Positions 49,001-58,055 of a stretch of 64,000 nucleotides of DNA are shown in pieces. The position numbers and the translations under genes are program-made. Below the pieces are notes generated by a model. The model ran no database searches, was not told the DNA's origin, and saw only the letters and a program-made list of their open reading frames with translations. This stretch comes from an uncultured Actinomycetes bacterium (lineage in GTDB: Bacteria; Actinomycetota; UBA4738; HRBIN12), in contig CAVWWK010000004.1 of assembly GCA_963758715.1 (NCBI GenBank), forward strand, positions 225,404-289,403. The letters are read 5' to 3'. The stretch's first letter is position 1. Every line of letters starts with the position of its first letter.

Positions 49001-49917
49001 CTAGCCCGGTGCGCCCGCCGCTTCCTCTTCCCTGCGCCGAACCTCCCTGAAGGAGGCGACGGCGACCTCGATCTGATCGCCGGTGGGCTCCTGGGTGGTG
49101 ATCTTCTGGAGCCAGATGCCCGGCGCCATCAGCGTTCGCATGACCAGCGAGCGTGGGAAGCGTGCGCCCAGGCGCAGCGCCTCGTAGGCGATGCCCGCGA
49201 TCACGGGGATCGCGACGATGCGCGAGCCGATCCGCCACCAGATGCCGGGGGTGCCGAAGAGCGTGAACACGAAGATCGTGATCACCATGACGATGATCAG
49301 GAAGTTCGTGCCGCAGCGGACGTGTTCCTTGGGGTAGCCGTCGATCGCGTCGGGGATCGTCCAGCTCGACGTCGTGCTCGAAGGCGGCGATCGTCTTGTG
49401 CTCGGCGCCGTGGTACATGAACACTCGGTGGATGTCCTTCGTGCGGCCGATCAGCCACAGGTAGCCCACGAACAGCAGCAACACGGAACAGCCCCTCGGC
49501 GATCAACGTCAGCACGCCGCCGCCGAACCGATCCTCCACCCAGGCGAAGGCGGCCGTGGGCCCGAGGATGAAGACGCCGACGAACAGCAGGAGCGCGATC
49601 GCCAGCGAGACCCCCACTTGCCTCGACGTGAGTTGCTCTTCGTCTTCGACCGACTGATTGGCCGCGATCATCAGCGCGCGGATGCCGATCGCGAGCGACT
49701 GGCCCAGGACGATGATCCCTCGCAGGAACGGCTTGCGAAGGATCGGGTGCGCGTCGGCGACCGACTCGATGTCGTGAGACTCGACGTGCATGTCGCCGGC
49801 CGGACGGCGGACGGCGACCGCCCAATGGTGGGCGCCGCGCATCATCACGCCCTCCACGACGGCCTGGCCGCCGTAGAGGTGCGTGGGCGTCTGCGCTGAC
49901 GGATCTTCGTCGGCCAT
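49001..49917 (-). CDS. DUF1385-family protein (at least two frameshifts).
   Basis: [15 protein letters not shown]...HWAVAVR; ...[17 protein letters not shown]...; the C-terminal TM segment lies in a third frame. Confidence 0.65.
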
Positions 49918-50272: not shown

Positions 50273-51968
50273 TCAGCTTCCGGTTTTCGCGATCTCCTTC
50301 AGGAACTGCTCGTTGGACTTGGTGGCCCGGATCTTGTCGGTGAGCAGCTCGAGCGCGGCGCCGGGCTCCAGCGCGTGGAGGACCCGGCGAAGCTTGATCA
50401 CCTGCGCGAGCTCGGCGGGCGGGAGCAGCAGCTCCTCCTTGCGCGTGCCGCTCGCATCGACGTTGATCGCGGGGAACAGACGCTTCTCCGCGAGCTGCCG
50501 GTCGAGCCGGATCTCCATGTTGCCCGTGCCCTTGAACTCCTCGAAGATCCCCTCGTCCATGCGCGAGCCCGTCTCGATCAGGGCGCTGGCGATGATCGAC
50601 ACGGATCCGCCCTCTTCGATGTTGCGGGCTGCGCCGAAGAAGCGGCGCGGCGGATAGAGGGCTGCGGAGTCGATACCCCCGGACAGGATCTTGCCCGAGG
50701 TGGGCATCGCCAGGTTGTAGGCGCGCGCCAGTCGCGTGAGCGAGTCCAGGATGATGGCGACGTCCTGCCCCTGCTCGGCCAGGCGCTTCGCGCGCTCCAG
50801 CACCAGCTCGGTGACCTGCACGTGCTGATCGGTGGGCTTGTCGAAGGTCGAGTACACGACCTCGGCGGCCGAGACCGTGCGCTGCCAGTCCGTGACCTCT
50901 TCGGGCCGTTCGTCGACGAGCAGCACGATCAGGTGCACCTCGGGGTTCGACGCGACGATGCCGTTGGCGATCTGCTTCAGGATCGTGGTCTTGCCCGCCT
51001 TCGGCGGCGACACGACCATGCCGCGCTGACCCTTGCCGATCGGCGCGATCATGTCGATGATGCGCTCGGCCACGGCGAGCGGCGCGTTCTCGAGGCGGAA
51101 CCGCTCCTCCGGGAACAGCGGCGTGAGCTTGTCGAAGTTGGGCCGGTCCTTCGCCTTCTCGGGGTCCATGTCGTTCACGGACTCGACCTCGAGCAAGGCC
51201 CAGTACTTCTCGTTGTCGCGGGCCTTGCGCACCTTGCCGGTCACGACGTCGCCCTTGCGCAGCGACATCTTGCGAACCTGCGAGAGGGAGACGTAGATGT
51301 CCTCGGACCCGGGCGTGTACCCGGACGTGCGCATGAAGCCGTATCCATCGGGGAGCAGGTCGAGGATCCCGGTCTGCGTCGGCGCGGTCAGGATCTCCTC
51401 GGCGCGCTCCTGCTCTTCGCGGACGCGGCGCTCCTCACGGTTGCGCCGGCGCTCCTCGCGAGAAGGACGCTGCCGCCTGCCGCGGTCCCCGCCCTGGCCA
51501 CCCTGGCCGCCCTGGCCCTGCTGGCCCTGTCCAGGACCACGGTCGCCACGGCCGCGCTCGTCCGGCTGCGACTCGTCACGGTCGCGTCGCCGCGACCTCG
51601 GTCGTCGCGACCCCGTCGTCCGCGCCGGTCGCCCGACCGGTCTTCGTCCGTTGACTCCGGCCCTCGGCTGCGTGCCGCCGGGCGCGGGCGCCGTGTCGGT
51701 CGGACGACGCCTCGGCAGCGGCGCCTGATGCGGCGCCGCCGCTGCTCTCCTCCGTTGTCGCCGCGCGGGGGCGCGGTCGCCCGGTGGCCTCGGCGGTGGC
51801 TCCGGCGCCGGCCTTCGCCGGGCTGCCGTTGCCGCCCGCGACGATCGCGTCGATCAGGCCCGCCTTGCGGAGCCGTTGCGTGCCCTCGATGCCCATGTCC
51901 TGGGCGATGCGCTGCAGCTCGGGTATGAGCTTCTGCTCGAGGGCGCTGCGGTCGGTCGTGGTGTCCAT
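50273..51968 (-). CDS. rho: Transcription termination factor Rho with an actinobacterial R/D/G-rich N-terminal insertion (one frameshift within the insertion, about 51600-51720).
   Basis: N-terminal domain LIPELQRIAQDMGIEGTQRLRKAGLIDAI; insertion ...RRPRSRRRDRDESQPDERGRGDRGPGQGQQGQGGQGG...; core from ...TGILDLLPDGYGFMRTSGY through the ATPase P-loop PPKAGKTT. Confidence 0.88.
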
Positions 51969-51972
51969 GAGG

Positions 51973-52637
51973 CTATGCCTCTCCCTTCAGGTCGTTCTGG
52001 AGCGTGTGCCAGTCGGCCAGGAACTTGTCCAGGCCTTGGTCGGTCAATGGGTGCTTCACCAGCTTGGTGAAGACGTCGTAAGGCATGGTCGCGATGTCTG
52101 CGCCGGCCATCGCCGATTCGATGACATGCATGGGGTGGCGGAGCGAGGCGGCCAGCACGTTGGTGTCGTAGCCCTGCACCGCGTAGATCTCGGTGATCGC
52201 GCGCAGCATACCCATGCCGTCGCTGCCGACGTCATCGAGCCGGCCGAGGAACGGCGAGACGATGTACGCGCCGATCTCGGCCGCCAGGATCGCCTGGGCG
52301 GGCGAGAACACGAGCGTGACGTTGATCTTGATCCCGTCGTCCATCAGTCGCTTGCCCGCCGTGAGCCCGTCGGTCGTCATCGGGACCTTCACGACCGCGT
52401 TCGGCGCCATCTGCGAGAGCCCGACCCCCTGCTCGTACATCGCGTCGGCCTCGCGTCTCGGTGGTCTCGAGCGAGATGTCGCCGGGAACGGCCTCGAGGA
52501 TCTCCTTCCAGACGATGTCGGGGTCCTGGCCCTCCTTCGCGACCAGCGAAGGGTTGGTCGTGACGCCCGACAGCACGCCCCAGCGGCTGGATCTCTCGGA
52601 TCTCCTCGATATCGGCCGTATCAAGGAACAGCTTCAT
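51973..52637 (-). CDS. Fructose-6-phosphate aldolase/transaldolase (Fsa/TalC type), two frameshifts.
   Basis: [20 protein letters not shown] / [15 protein letters not shown]...ETTET / ...[11 protein letters not shown]...[30 protein letters not shown].... Confidence 0.75.
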
Positions 52638-53629
52638 GCGGATCTTCCCTGCCTCTCTGTGGCCGTCGTCCGCCTCGTCGTCGCGGCTCGTGCCGGCGCC
52701 GCGCGGATCTCTGCGGCGCGCTGCGGTGGCGCGCTCCATCACCAGGTCCATCACCGCGGCGATCGACTGGTCGAAGCTGTAGTTCGGCAGCACCGGCACG
52801 CCGTGGGAGAGCGCCTGGCTCTTGACGTAGCTTCTGGAGCCGCCGGATGTTCTCGAATCCTGCCGAGTACCGTTCGGCCGGCCGCGTGGCCACCGCTTCC
52901 TCGCGGGTCGCGAAGTGGGTGAGATGCCGGCCCTCGTCGTCGACACCGAGGATGAACGGCACCGCCAGGATACCGGTCCGGCGTGCGCATCCAGATCGAG
53001 GAATCCGGGCACGATGTGCGCGCCTTCGATGATGATGCCCGTGCCCTCGGTGGCCGCCCGTTCGATCAGCGCGTTGATGCCCACGGAGACCGCGGCGGTC
53101 TGCTCGCGGAACCCGAGCAGCAGGGGGTCGGCCGACTTGCCGGGCTCCCGCAGCGCCAGGTCGGCGTGGAACGAGGACGTGTGCAACGTGGGCATCAGCT
53201 CGGGCGAGAGCATCGAGCGCATGACCTCGCGGATGGCGTCGGTCGCGACCACGCGGACGATGCCCAGACGCGCCGCGAGCTGCGTCGCGATCGTGGACTT
53301 GCCGACCCCGGTCGTGCCCCCGATCAGGATCACGAGCGGGACGTCGAGCCGCTCGACCTCGCGCCAGCGGACGAAGTTCTTCGCGTATCGGTCGCCCGCG
53401 ATCTCGGCGATCACCGCGTGCGCGACGTCGGCGAGCTCATCGCTGGTGACCGAGTCGCATCCCCGGCTCGTGCAGGCTGGTCCTCGATCGCCTCGGCGAC
53501 CTGATACGCGCGGTACGGCGACAGGCCCGTCACCATGACCTGCGAGGCCATCAAGCCCTTGGAGAAGGGCAGGCCGGGCTCACGGTCGGTGATCACGATG
53601 TGGGTGGTCTTGGGTTCCCTCTGGTTCAC
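52621..53629 (-). CDS. 2-phosphoglycerate kinase (COG2074), several frameshifts. The 3' end is uncertain.
   Basis: GTG start overlaps the upstream stop (GTGA). ...[42 protein letters not shown]..., P-loop [46 protein letters not shown]... Confidence 0.6.
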
Positions 53630-54988
53630 CGGCTCGTCCCCCGTCGGGCGACCGCGGCTCGCGCCCTGGCGAGGTCGAGCATGTCGCCCAGCGCCGTGTC
53701 GAGGTCGATCGACCCCTCCACGACGACCGCGCGGTTGTCCACGAACACGACCTCCGCCCCTCGAGCGAGGGCTCGCTCGACGCCGATGTCGACGGCGGCG
53801 GCCTTCAGCTCCGTGAGGAGGACGTCGTATCCCTGGGCTGCATCGAGGTCCTCCGCGAGCCCGGCCCGGTCGGCCAGCCGCGCGCTCCACCCCACGACCT
53901 CGCATCCGTGGCCGCCTGCGAGATGCTCGACCTGTCGCGCGGCCACGCCGCCCGGCGCGGTGGTGGCGAAGAACACCCGCGCGCCCTGCACGTCCGCCAG
54001 AGGCACCGGGATGAAGTCGGTGACCAGCAGCTGCGACCATCCAGGAACCGGAGGACGTGGGAGCGCAGTGCGGGGAGGTTCTCGGGCCCAGAAGCGGGCC
54101 GGAAGCCATGGTAACAACCGCCAGGTCGGAGCGCAACAGCCGGTAGGGGCCCGAGATAGCCCCCCAGGTACTCGGGCGGCAGCGCTCGCCGGGCACGACC
54201 AGGACGCCCGCGTCCCACGGCACGGGAGGGACGGCGGCGCCGCTGCCCTCGAGGACGAGCGACCCCGGGTCGAACGAGCCGCGGCCAGCTCGGCGGCCTC
54301 CCGGACGTTCGTGGCGTACGGCGCTCCCGCGAGGCCGCCGCCGGCCCGCCGCGCGCCGATCGTCGTCACGCCGGTGGTGAGGGCGTCCTCGAGGTAGTCG
54401 GAGGCCGCGTGCTGGCCGTCGCGGACCAGCTCGACGAGCCGATCGAGGTCGACGCTGCCCGCCTCGGCGACCTGCGGCTCGGCGGGCCCTCCCCTGCCCA
54501 TCGCCACGACGACCGGGGTGCAGCGCCGCGGCGCGCGGCGAGCCGGGCGACCTCGCCGCTGATGGCGGTCTTGCCCGGTGCGTTTGCCCGTGCCGATCAC
54601 GGCGATCGTGGGGACCGGGACGGCGGGCCGTCGAGCGGGCGGCGCGAGCCGGAAGTCCGGCGCCCACGTAGCGGCACGCCGCGCGTCAGTGCCACGCGCC
54701 GCAAGCTCCATGCGCTCGCGGTAGCCGAGAACCGGCTCGTCCGACAGGTCGAGCACGACCTCGGGGCCGCCATCGCGTCGATCGCGTCGGCGAGCGCCGG
54801 CCATGCGGTCGGGTCCCGCCGCCACGCTCGGAACGCCGAGGTCGGGCAGCGAACCCGGGTCGATCTTCTCGATGCCGCCGACGAAGACAGCGCCGACCAC
54901 CTCGTGGCCGCGTTCGGTCGCGGTCGCGATGCGCCCATCGGGTCACCGGTGGGTAGTGCTCGCCGTCGACGAGCACCACGGTTCGCAT
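53626..54988 (-). CDS. Cyclic 2,3-diphosphoglycerate synthetase-like protein (CpgS homologue), several frameshifts.
   Basis: Reconstructed across frames: MRTVVLVDGEHYPPVTRW..., AVFVGGIEKIDPG, VLDLSDEPV, IGTGKRTG, VVAMGRGGPAEP, GQHAASDYLEDAL, LVLEGSGAAVPPV, GPYRLLRSDLAVVT, VFFATTAPGG, VLLTELKAAAVDIG. The motif match is from memory of the archaeal enzymes. Confidence 0.55.
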
Positions 54989-55046
54989 CGGTGGATTCCC
55001 TCCTCGGGGCGATGCCGCGTGTCGGTTCGGTGTCGCGAGGTGGTCG

Positions 55047-55838
55047 CTACTCGCCGACGGGCACGGTGCGTTGCTGGATGGGCGCCTCGTGCTCGCGATG
55101 GAGCTGATCGCCCGCGAGCGAGAAGTGGGTCATCACGTGGCTGTCGCCGAACGGGAACCGGCGGTGGATGCTGGACCTGGTCGCCGTCGAACTCCAGCAC
55201 GTTGTAGCACGGCTTGGTGTACCCGCGGACCCGCAAGGACGACACCGTGCCGGCGTTGGCGACGTACATGTTCTCCAGCCGCCAGACGTACGGCACGTGC
55301 TTGTGGCCCGGAAAGCACGACCTGCACGCCGGCGTTGATGAGCACCTCGAGCAGGTCGCCGGCATCCATCACCGTGCTGCGCTCGCGCCCGGTGCCGGGG
55401 ATCGGCAGCAGGTGGTGGTGCAGCACGAACACCTTCAGCGCCGCGGGCTCCTCGAACTGGCGGCGGATCCAGTCGTAGTGGACGCGGCCGACCTTGCCCT
55501 CGTTGAGGTCGGGCTCGCTGGAGTCGACCCCCACGATGCGAACGCCGTCGACGTCGTGAGACCACATGCGAGGGCCGATCAGATCCTCGAAGTGCAGGTA
55601 GCCGACGTTGCGGGAGTCGTGGTTGCCCGGAACGGTGATGATCGGGCGCCTGGATGCGCTCGGCGTAGGCGACCCAGTTCTTGTACTCCTGCCGGTAGCC
55701 CTCGGCGGTGAGGTCCCCGCTGCAGACGACGACGTCGGGCTGCATCTCGTTGATCTCGGCGATCACCCGGTTCATGAGGTTGGGCACGAAGAACGGCGAG
55801 CCGACGTGGGGATCGGAGATGTGGGCGAGGGTGACCAC
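55047..55838 (-). CDS. Calcineurin-like metallophosphoesterase, about three frameshifts.
   Basis: VTLAHISDPHVG...VVCSGDLT...GNHD.../...VFVLHHHLLP...GHKHVPYVW... Confidence 0.6.
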   Translation of the reverse strand: MVTLAHISDPHVGSPFFVPNLMNRVIAEINEMQPDVVVCSGDLTAEGYRQEYKNWVAYAERIQAPDHHRSGQPRLPQRRLPALRGSDRPSHVVSRRRRRSHRGGRLQRARPQRGQGRPRPLRLDPPPVRGARGAEGVRAAPPPAADPRHRARAQHGDGCRRPARGAHQRRRAGRAFRATSTCRTSGGWRTCTSPTPARCRPCGSAGTPSRATTCWSSTATRSSIHRRFPFGDSHVMTHFSLAGDQLHREHEAPIQQRTVPVGE

Positions 55839-55954: not shown

Positions 55955-57146
55955 ATGACGTCTCGTGAGTGGCTCGACGTGATGCTCGTGGTGCTGCTCG
56001 CCGCCGCCCTCTCTCGGGGTACCGGCGCGGCGCCGTCCTCCAGGTGTTCGGATCGGCGGCCTGCTGGTCGGCGTGGCGGCCGGGCATGGCCATCGCACCG
56101 AGCGTCGCCGGCTTCGCCGAGTCCCCCGCGAGCGGCGGCCTTCGTGCTCGGCCGCGGTGCTGGTCGCGGCGGCCATCGGGAACATGCTCGGGTATGGCCG
56201 GATCGTGGCTGCGTCCGCGTGACGCGCAAGACCCCCCTGCGCCGCGCCGACGCGCTGGGCGGCTCCGCCCTGTCCGCGGCGTTCCTGCTGCTCGCCGACT
56301 GGTTCCTGGCGCTGAACCTGGCGAGGGCCCCTTCCCCGGGTGGCGCGAGGGGTCCGCGAATCGCGATCGTGCAGACGCTGGACGCCACGCTCCCACCGCC
56401 GCCCTCGCTCCTGGCGAGGCTGGGGCGGGTGCTGACGCTGCTCGGGTTCGCCGACGTGTTCATCGGACTCCCGGCGTAGCCCGCCGATCCGGTCGATCCG
56501 CCCACGGGCGCCGAAGCGGTCGCCGCCGCGCAGGCGGCCGAGGGGTCAGCACGGTCGAGGTGGCCGCGGAGGGATGCTTCCAGGGGTTCATGAATCAAGG
56601 GAGCGGGTTCGTCGTCGCCGCACGGCCTCGTGGTCACGAACGCCCATGTCGTGGCCGGCACCGAACGGCAATGGGTCCACGTCCGAAGGCGACACGGCGG
56701 GGCCACGGTGGTCGTCTTCGACCCGGACCTCGACATCGCCCTGCTGCACGTGCCCGACCTCGATCTCGCGCCGCTCCCGCTGCTCGCGGGCGAGGCGAGG
56801 CGAGGCGGTGCCGGGGCGCGTCCTCGGGTATCCCGAGCGGCGGACCCCTCACGCGCAAGCCGCCGCGGCGATCAGGGCGGTGATCGAGCCGGTCGGCCGC
56901 AACATCTACGGCGAGGGTCAGGTGCAGCGCCGGCGTACCTACGAGATGCAGGCGGCATCCACCGGGGCAACAGCGGCGGCCCGTTCGTGCTCCCGAGCGG
57001 CAGGGTCGCCGGCGTGGTGTTCGCGAACTCGGTGGTCGCCGACGGCGTGGGCTACGCGATCGTCTCCACGACAGGTGGTGCCGAAGCGTCGCGGAGGGTC
57101 GGCGACGAGGAACCGGCGCGGCGTGACCGGATCGTGCACGGGCTGA
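55955..57146 (+). CDS. MarP-like membrane serine protease (CvpA-like N-terminal TM domain plus trypsin-like S1 domain), several frameshifts.
   Basis: MTSREWLDVMLVVLLAAALSRG...; VVTNAHVVAG, DIALLHV, GNSGGP; ends ...GVTGSCTG, resembling the MarP C-terminus. Confidence 0.55.
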
Positions 57147-57149
57147 GGA

Positions 57150-58055
57150 GCCGTCAGCTCCTCGACCAGATCGAAGCCGGTCGAGCGGACCCCGGGCCGC
57201 AGGACGCGCCATCCATCCCCGGGATCCGGCAGGCGGAACCGCGACGCCTCTCGAACGCGAGCAGGGTCGGACCCGCAGCCCGAGACGCACACGGGGACAC
57301 GCGTGGACCGGAGCGCGTCGAAGAGCTCCTTCACGGCCGGCACGAGCGCCAGGCGGACGTCCTGATGCAGCCGGTCCTGCAGCGCATCGGCGATACAGGC
57401 CGGGATCGTCGCGTCAGCGGCCTCGCACCATCAGCGCTGCGTGCGCCGCGTTGAAGACGGCGTCCGGCCCTCGGGACCAGACGGCGGGCAGGACCGCGCG
57501 CGCCTCGGCGGTGGGGAGCCGGACGCCCGTCGGCACGAGCAGCGACCGGCCGAAGATCCGGATGCGGGTCGAGACGATGGACGGCTCCTTCCGGCGGCGC
57601 GATCGTGAACCCTCCGAAGCGCGCCGGCGCCGCGTTGTCGGGATGCCCCTCGATCTCGCCGGCCAGCCGCGACCGGGTGAAGGTCGTGCCCGATCGGCGG
57701 GTCGAGCCCGTCGATCGACCCGCGGAGCAGGCGCGAGCGCCAGCGACCACCCCGGCCACCGCCGCGGCCGAGGACGAGCCGAGGCCCCGCTCGAGCGGGA
57801 TCGCGGTTCACGCCGTGGATCCGCAGCGGGGGCGACGCCAGGCCGTGGCCGACCCGACCCTGGACGATCGTCTCGCTGACCAGGTCCGAGCCGTCGGTCG
57901 GAAGCTCGTCCGCGCCTTCGCCTTCCCAGGTGACTCCGGGCTCGGCGTCGGTGTCGATCGTGACCTCGTTGCACAGGTCGAGCGCGAGCCCGAAGCAGTC
58001 GAAGCCCGGCCCGAGGTTGGCCGAGGTCGCGGGGACGCGGACGGTCGACGCGCAT
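57150..58055 (-). CDS. thrB: Homoserine kinase, heavily frameshifted. The 3' end is approximate.
   Basis: ATG right after the thrC stop. ...VRVPATSANLGPGFDCFGLALDL..., ...EIEGHPDNAAPARFGGFTIA, ...PDAVFNAAHAALMV, ...VCVSGCG. Confidence 0.55.

Follow-up and report, generated by a model that had tools for sequence, protein, structure and literature searches.

Overlapping genes for a cyclic 2,3-diphosphoglycerate synthetase homolog and a 2-phosphoglycerate kinase homolog in a putative core operon of uncultured Actinomycetota

We analysed a 64,000-nucleotide stretch of DNA (the window) from an uncultured Actinomycetes bacterium (assembly GCA_963758715.1, contig CAVWWK010000004.1, positions 225,404 to 289,403), in which two of three adjacent genes recall the pathway that makes cyclic 2,3-diphosphoglycerate (cDPG) in the methanogen Methanothermus fervidus. 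The window has a GC content of about 70% and carries single-base frameshifts throughout, which split even rho, prfA, thrC and hom; we translated the three minus-strand frames and aligned them, with frameshifts allowed, to the intact proteins of a relative (locus L001). Once some 24 single-base indels are corrected, the minus strand of 51973–54988 resolves into three back-to-back genes free of in-frame stops, in the places where a preliminary description of the region had put them. The first, cpgS (53626–54988; ATG at 54988, TGA at 53628–53626), has 15 indels, with the P-loop frame restored across the one at 54576, and encodes a 451-residue homolog of cDPG synthetase (cDPGS), 85% identical to its counterpart P0003 from the intact relative. 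The second (52634–53629, minus strand; GTG start, 7 indels, about 329 residues, 86% identical to the relative) encodes a 2-phosphoglycerate kinase (2PGK) homolog of the COG2074 type, its C-terminal end (~52634) being placed by an ATGA overlap with the third gene, tal (51973–52637, minus strand; 220 residues, 2 indels, TAG stop, 87% identical to the relative), of the TalC/Fsa family. The GTGA overlap of the cpgS stop with the kinase start that had been described earlier is real (cgGTGAacc), and the kinase stop meets the tal start in the same manner (cgcATGAagc); these 4-bp stop/start overlaps imply translational coupling and roughly stoichiometric expression. A metallophosphoesterase (MPE) gene lies directly upstream of cpgS, and the 58-nt spacer between its stop and the cpgS start carries a Shine-Dalgarno-like GAGGAGGG (54998–55005, minus strand), read from the sequence 9 nt ahead of the cpgS start codon.

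Compared with the Protein Data Bank (PDB) by phmmer, the reconstructed CpgS aligns with the solved M. fervidus cDPGS (8ORK/8ORU) in a single stretch (residues 3–438 against 7–452, E=1.7e-90) and with a second cDPGS structure, 9SXB, at 4e-89; identity to the solved M. fervidus enzyme is 39% over 433 columns, and the full-length homology takes in the unique N-terminal domain of about 127 residues of the characterized enzyme. The closest CpgS homologs carry Pfam PF27272 (CpgS_N) in precomputed annotations. The structural study (PMC10690619) assigns binding and charge shielding of 2,3-diphosphoglycerate (2,3-DPG) to E45 (with K46) of the partner subunit, K145, R146, K149 and K406, Mg coordination to T150 and D208, and ATP binding to E305, P335, T353 and E404. 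The window protein is identical at E45, K46, K145, R146, K149, T150, D208, P335, T353, E404 and K406; its Walker A motif, GTGKRTGKT, keeps K145, R146, K149 and T150 of the solved enzyme, and the FxPxP segment retains its two prolines. Across the family the 2,3-DPG and Mg contact positions are near-invariant, being conserved in 67–73 of 77 full-length representatives. All the motifs from which the preliminary description had recognized the enzyme (MRTVVLVDGEHYPPVTRW, AVFVGGIEK, DLSDEPV, IGTGKRTG, VAMGRGGP, HAASD, EGSGAAVPPV, FFATTAP and LTELKAAAVD) are present, and its identification stands: the alignment makes the first gene a genuine homolog of cDPGS over its full length, the match extending well beyond a generic P-loop.

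The product of the second gene finds its best matches in two NCBIfam equivalog models for 2PGK, aligned end to end: NF003259 (297.3 bits, E=1.3e-88, model positions 3–297 of 306) and NF008994 (287 bits, E=1.9e-85). Pfam AAA_33 marks the P-loop kinase core (27.4 bits), and the N-terminus is weakly ATP-cone-like (20.4 bits); a search of the PDB found no 2PGK structure on which substrate residues could be mapped. The earlier assignment to COG2074 thus agrees with the best hits, and by its closest relatives the second gene is a 2PGK-type kinase of that group, translationally coupled to cpgS. In the proposed pathway, the kinase would phosphorylate 2-phosphoglycerate (2PG) with ATP to give 2,3-DPG, in which the CpgS homolog, using ATP and Mg, would close an intramolecular phosphoanhydride, yielding cDPG, ADP and Pi by the same P-loop phosphoryl transfer as the M. 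fervidus enzyme. PMC10690619 proposes that the archaeal cDPGS works by two SN2 steps. We infer the substrates, product and physiological role of the window enzymes from sequence; possible roles for the product are heat protection, a reserve of phosphate, carbon or energy, or that of a general anionic stress solute.

The arrangement of these genes is invariant among the closest relatives. All 80 of the nearest species-level genomes, whose loci reach down to 66% CpgS identity, share the order hom-thrC-thrB-[MarP][SDR]-MPE-cpgS-2PGK-tal-rho-rpmE-DUF1385-...-prmC, in which only the MarP-like protease and the SDR gene vary (MarP being present in part of the loci). The cpgS and 2PGK genes overlap by an NTGA in 60 of the 80, and in 48 of those 60 the kinase and tal genes overlap as well; cpgS and 2PGK alike have a pairwise dN/dS of about 0.22. 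The cpgS-2PGK adjacency extends to Streptomyces, to Acidimicrobiia and to three further divergent clusters. In Streptomyces the locus is not near rho but in a chromosome arm, where cpgS overlaps a 2PGK homolog; Acidimicrobiia have hom-thrC-(apgM-like 'proposed homoserine kinase')-cpgS-2PGK-tal-rho, and Acidimicrobiales hom-thrC ... cpgS-kinase. Two loci from divergent clusters read hom-thrC-HSK-MPE-cpgS-kinase-tal-rho-rpmE-DUF1385-prfA-prmC (L090) and hom-thrC-thrB-x-cpgS-kinase-tal-rho (L091). Since the layout from the thr operon through cpgS-2PGK to tal-rho recurs at only 40–48% CpgS identity, in Acidimicrobiia and in two more deeply branching clusters of the protein, the position of cpgS-2PGK between the thr operon and tal-rho is ancient and widespread in Actinomycetota. 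Among the loci compared, the coupled cpgS-2PGK pair was found in bacteria only.

The family itself is broadly distributed. A first homolog search returned more than 5,700 CpgS relatives, the best of which, in Actinomycetota metagenome-assembled genomes (MAGs), are 447 residues long, are 85–87% identical to the corrected window protein and already bear the name 'cyclic 2,3-diphosphoglycerate synthetase' in JGI and NCBI annotation. When each GTDB species was represented by one genome, CpgS relatives turned up in at least 568 species genomes, the best 80 of which are all uncultured Actinomycetota; many of the close relatives are MAGs with MFD isolate names, a prefix presumably that of Microflora Danica, a survey of Danish habitats of temperate climate. 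An exhaustive search of representatives gave about 240 CpgS clusters (50% identity) at E<=1e-30, and look-ups of cluster members revealed cultured Streptomyces (among them Streptomyces sp. WAC 01529 and S. anatolicus), Acidimicrobiia/Acidimicrobiales, other Actinomycetota, Bipolaricaulota, Cloacimonadota and Thermococcus, the Streptomyces RefSeq proteins being named '2,3-diphosphoglycerate synthetase' (for example, WP_125510701.1). The preliminary description had regarded the pair as unusual in an actinobacterial chromosome, a view that these numbers, and the named proteins of cultured Streptomyces, do not support. We put at roughly 70% the probability that this operon, (MPE)-cpgS-2PGK-tal-rho, belongs to the vertically inherited core of an uncultured clade of Actinomycetota and that its synthetase-kinase pair makes cDPG.

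The window locus is a bacterial representative of a known system, that of cDPGS and 2PGK; it is no new system, since public annotation already names the genes, and PF27272 covers the family. It shares both enzyme families with the M. fervidus cDPG pathway (8ORK/8ORU; PMC10690619, PMC12136491), and the two synthetases have in common the N-terminal domain, the Walker A motif GTGKRxGKT, the Mg ligands and the 2,3-DPG contacts; the window locus differs in its bacterial host, in joining the two genes, together with rho and a transaldolase gene, into one translationally coupled operon, and in a kinase that falls under the equivalog cutoff, an E305-to-Ser replacement and a product that is predicted only. 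It shares the family with the annotated bacterial homologs (Streptomyces, Acidimicrobiia, and MAGs of Bipolaricaulota and Cloacimonadota), and the cpgS-kinase pairing with the actinobacterial ones examined (Streptomyces, Acidimicrobiia and three other clusters), whereas its clade is 40–48% identical to these homologs and invariably has the MPE upstream of cpgS; the Streptomyces pair, unlike that of the window, occupies a chromosome arm and is not near rho, and in Bipolaricaulota cpgS is coupled to a phosphoglycerate mutase instead of a kinase. The papers found, from 2023–2025, confine cDPG to thermophilic methanogens and treat the presence of its synthetase as a sign of thermophily, as in work that reconstructs the ancestors of ammonia-oxidising archaea. 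What is of moderate interest here is that a trait the literature gives to thermophilic archaea is, on homology, encoded by core genes of hundreds of bacterial species, where they are under selection. Such a conserved locus weakens the cDPGS gene as a marker of thermophily; the high-GC bacterial enzymes could serve extremolyte production, and the existence of cultured Streptomyces carriers enables a direct check for cDPG.

Several observations weigh against synthesis of cDPG by this pair. Neither the raw nor the reconstructed CpgS matched any model in local Pfam and NCBIfam scans, and its family membership rests on the PDB comparison because PF27272 was found in precomputed annotations only. 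An identity of 39% leaves room for a shifted substrate, and the adenosine contact E305 is Ser in the window protein; since position 305 varies across the family, with E in just 38 of the 77 full-length representatives, this residue does not strictly define cDPGS. The kinase scores lie under the curated equivalog cutoffs of 343 (NF003259) and 603 (NF008994), which reflects real divergence and not an artefact of reconstruction, as the protein of the intact relative scores the same; COG2074 also includes kinases with other substrates, and a model for mevalonate-3-phosphate 5-kinase matches at 66 bits. According to a published abstract, only thermophilic methanogens have cDPG, and our literature searches on bacterial cDPG, cDPGS and 2PGK found no relevant report and no bacterial biochemistry.

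The alternative that draws most on these points holds that the pair is functional and that cDPG is not an accumulated solute, the enzymes serving instead to supply 2,3-bisphosphoglycerate (2,3-BPG; for example, as cofactor of a dPGM-type mutase) or to act on a related phosphorylated acid, from which the CpgS homolog would form another pyrophosphate, cyclic or linear. The breadth of substrates in COG2074, the sub-cutoff kinase, the distance from the characterized synthetase, with E305 replaced in the window protein, and the silence of the literature searched on bacterial cDPG all agree with it, as does the fact that the heat-protectant role of cDPG has been described only in thermophilic archaea, while nothing in our analysis marks the bacterial carriers as thermophilic. 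Yet the window protein keeps all of the 2,3-DPG contact residues, including E45 and K46 of the partner subunit, and a synthetase paired with the kinase in actinobacterial loci would be needless if the pathway stopped at 2,3-BPG. The gene neighbourhood in Bipolaricaulota (L086:6920-10908 and L087) bears on the same question: there an ABC transporter operon is followed by cpgS overlapping a bona fide GpmI-type phosphoglycerate mutase (iPGM), and we found no 2PGK within 8 kb of cpgS (a 304-residue open reading frame after the iPGM was tried as a 2PGK and rejected, as it matched no family). Phosphoglycerate mutase being the enzyme that makes 2PG, this linkage suggests 2PG as the entry metabolite and favours the cDPG pathway. 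A product other than cDPG is therefore, in our estimate, unlikely, though it is the leading rival.

A related observation concerns two loci in which an apgM-like protein takes the place of thrB (L084:6782-7969 and L090:4181-5368). It passes the cutoffs both for cofactor-independent phosphoglycerate mutase (505 bits) and for 'proposed homoserine kinase' (498 bits), and its gene occupies the interval from thrC to cpgS-2PGK, adjoining cpgS in L084 and separated from it by one gene in L090. If the protein is a real mutase, its 2PG would feed the cDPG pathway; because a true mutase beside cpgS-2PGK would supply 2PG in this way, the assignment as a homoserine kinase is ambiguous.

We then considered the origin of the locus, which the preliminary description had read as an accessory insertion, possibly horizontal, into the thrB-rho gap. 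On that reading the trio would be an island gained recently from (hyper)thermophilic archaea at a canonical junction: thrB and rho are, we assume, immediate neighbours in M. tuberculosis and other model Actinomycetes, the characterized family members are archaeal only, and the family is common to both domains, so that some ancient transfer between domains must have occurred. Against a recent gain stand the identical block in 80 of 80 species-level relatives, to 66% CpgS identity; the recurrence of thr to cpgS-2PGK-tal-rho in Acidimicrobiia and two clusters at 40–48% identity; the dN/dS near 0.2; and a GC content of 0.67–0.75 across the locus, the same as in its flanks. No mobile-element gene was found, nor any integrase, transposase or tRNA at the borders of the locus, and in Methanothermobacter cpgS does not adjoin 2PGK.

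Phylogeny points the same way. In a neighbour-joining tree of CpgS (100 bootstraps), the window clade forms a distinct branch (bootstrap 95–100) that lies outside Methanobacteriales and is not nested in methanogens, Methanobacteriales splitting from all other sequences at a bootstrap of 100; the backbone of the tree is poorly supported (0–39). The window CpgS is 48% identical to that of Streptomyces, 47% to Acidimicrobiales and 44% to Bipolaricaulota, as against 39–40% to Thermococcus and methanogens. Nothing in these comparisons indicates a recent archaeal donor, whereas an ancient transfer between the domains, in either direction and perhaps into the actinobacterial stem, may have taken place; a recent horizontal event is contradicted by the pattern of synteny and divergence, an archaeal island at this junction is highly improbable, and the tie to hyperthermophilic methanogens drawn in the preliminary description loses its phylogenetic footing. 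A search with the M. fervidus enzyme at identities of at least 67% returned Methanobacteriales only, including Methanobacterium and Methanobrevibacter (P0328–P0442). These two genera are largely mesophilic, and the cDPGS gene would then be no marker of hyperthermophily even within archaea.

The frameshifts bear on a further possibility, that the three genes are decaying pseudogenes. Frameshift-aware alignment gave 9 indels in thrB, 17 in the gene for the MarP-like protease, at least 3 in rho and 3 in the MPE gene, and because rho, thrB and other neighbours are hit as well, the indels belong to the sequence record as a whole and are not peculiar to the cpgS locus. Those in the window are mostly insertions, with a modest enrichment near homopolymer runs of at least 4 bases (33% against 14%), and look like artefacts of unpolished or noisy sequence rather than biology. 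Decay of the trio, suggested by multiple frameshifts per gene (24 over the three reading frames), just one third of them near such runs, is the least credible explanation of all, given the same indel density in essential genes of the window (rho, thrB and others), the lack of stops once frames are restored, the 85–87% identity to intact relatives with catalytic residues all kept, and the purifying selection on those relatives. Between 45982 and 60463, every gene examined, including rho, prfA, thrB, thrC and hom, has an indel every 100–300 bp or so.

For the third gene, the preliminary description had proposed an Fsa/TalC aldolase belonging to the pathway. The family assignment holds, in that the protein passes TIGR00875, a model named 'fructose-6-phosphate aldolase' (264 bits against a cutoff of 245.95); the activity and the pathway membership are not supported. 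Its full-length PDB matches are the transaldolases of Thermotoga maritima (1VPX, 240 bits), Bacillus subtilis (3R8R, 231 bits), Thermus (1WX0, 229 bits) and Thermoplasma (3S0C, 211 bits), whereas structures of FSA score 111–124 bits (E. coli FSA, 1L6W, 123 bits). We rejected a fructose-6-phosphate aldolase proper, of the E. coli FsaA type, on this difference (211–240 against 111–124 bits), and because the protein is far closer to the short transaldolases of about 220 residues, its best likeness in the PDB over the full length, than to E. coli FSA, it is most likely a short (subfamily-4-like) transaldolase. It is probably an ordinary enzyme of the pentose phosphate pathway that shares the transcription unit, and not a cDPG pathway enzyme. 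The gene is tied to rho (50276–51968, minus strand), which starts 4 nt past the tal stop, as tightly as to the kinase, and the tal-rho adjacency is conserved in all relatives. The order in B. subtilis, which we take to be tal...glpX-rho-rpmE...prfA-prmC-sua5-ywlE-rpiB-glyA, resembles the flanks in the window; if so, the tal-rho linkage would be an old Gram-positive synteny.

The MPE gene (55047–55838, minus strand; 262 residues, 3 indels) encodes a calcineurin-like metallophosphoesterase (Pfam Metallophos, 72.6 bits) in which the metal motifs DxH, GD, GNHD and GHxH are all present. These motifs are common to class-III cyclic-nucleotide/glycerophosphodiester phosphoesterases (Rv0805, GpdQ and CpdA), to which the similarity is only 38–48 bits, the best PDB matches being distant ones of the Rv0805/GpdQ type; the protein reached no curated family cutoff. 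The gene is directly upstream of cpgS in every relative locus with upstream sequence (L003–L082), and again in the divergent locus L090 (L090:5490-6317), whose cluster is about 47% identical. It could, speculatively, be a candidate phosphohydrolase of cDPG or 2,3-DPG; we know of no cDPG hydrolase gene that has been identified. This raises a wider possibility, that cDPG is a genuine, unreported bacterial metabolite (of the actinobacterial core operon, some Streptomyces, Acidimicrobiia and Bipolaricaulota), acting as a buffer of phosphate, carbon or energy or as a general stress solute, beyond any part in protecting hyperthermophiles from heat, with the linked MPE as the cDPG hydrolase that closes a cycle co-expressed with transaldolase and rho. 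We offer this extension tentatively and regard it, taken as a whole, as doubtful.

The flanks of the trio agree with the earlier account, with thrB, a MarP-like protease and the MPE on one side and rho on the other. The protease, a membrane serine protease with Colicin_V and trypsin domains, is encoded on the plus strand (55964–57143), opposite to cpgS, and is followed by thrB (57158–58055, minus strand), the last gene of hom-thrC-thrB. On the side of rho, all relatives share with the window a DUF1385 gene (49004–49881, minus strand), placed here between rpmE and prfA; scanning the entire window against Rfam gave no match. Among the relatives, one contig labelled 'Candidatus Velamenicoccus archaeovorus' (L037, JBHGAT010000023.1) contains the full MarP-MPE-cpgS-2PGK-tal-rho-rpmE block with a CpgS 70% identical to that of the window, and is probably mis-binned. 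The window rho has a long N-terminal insertion rich in Arg, Gly and Asp.

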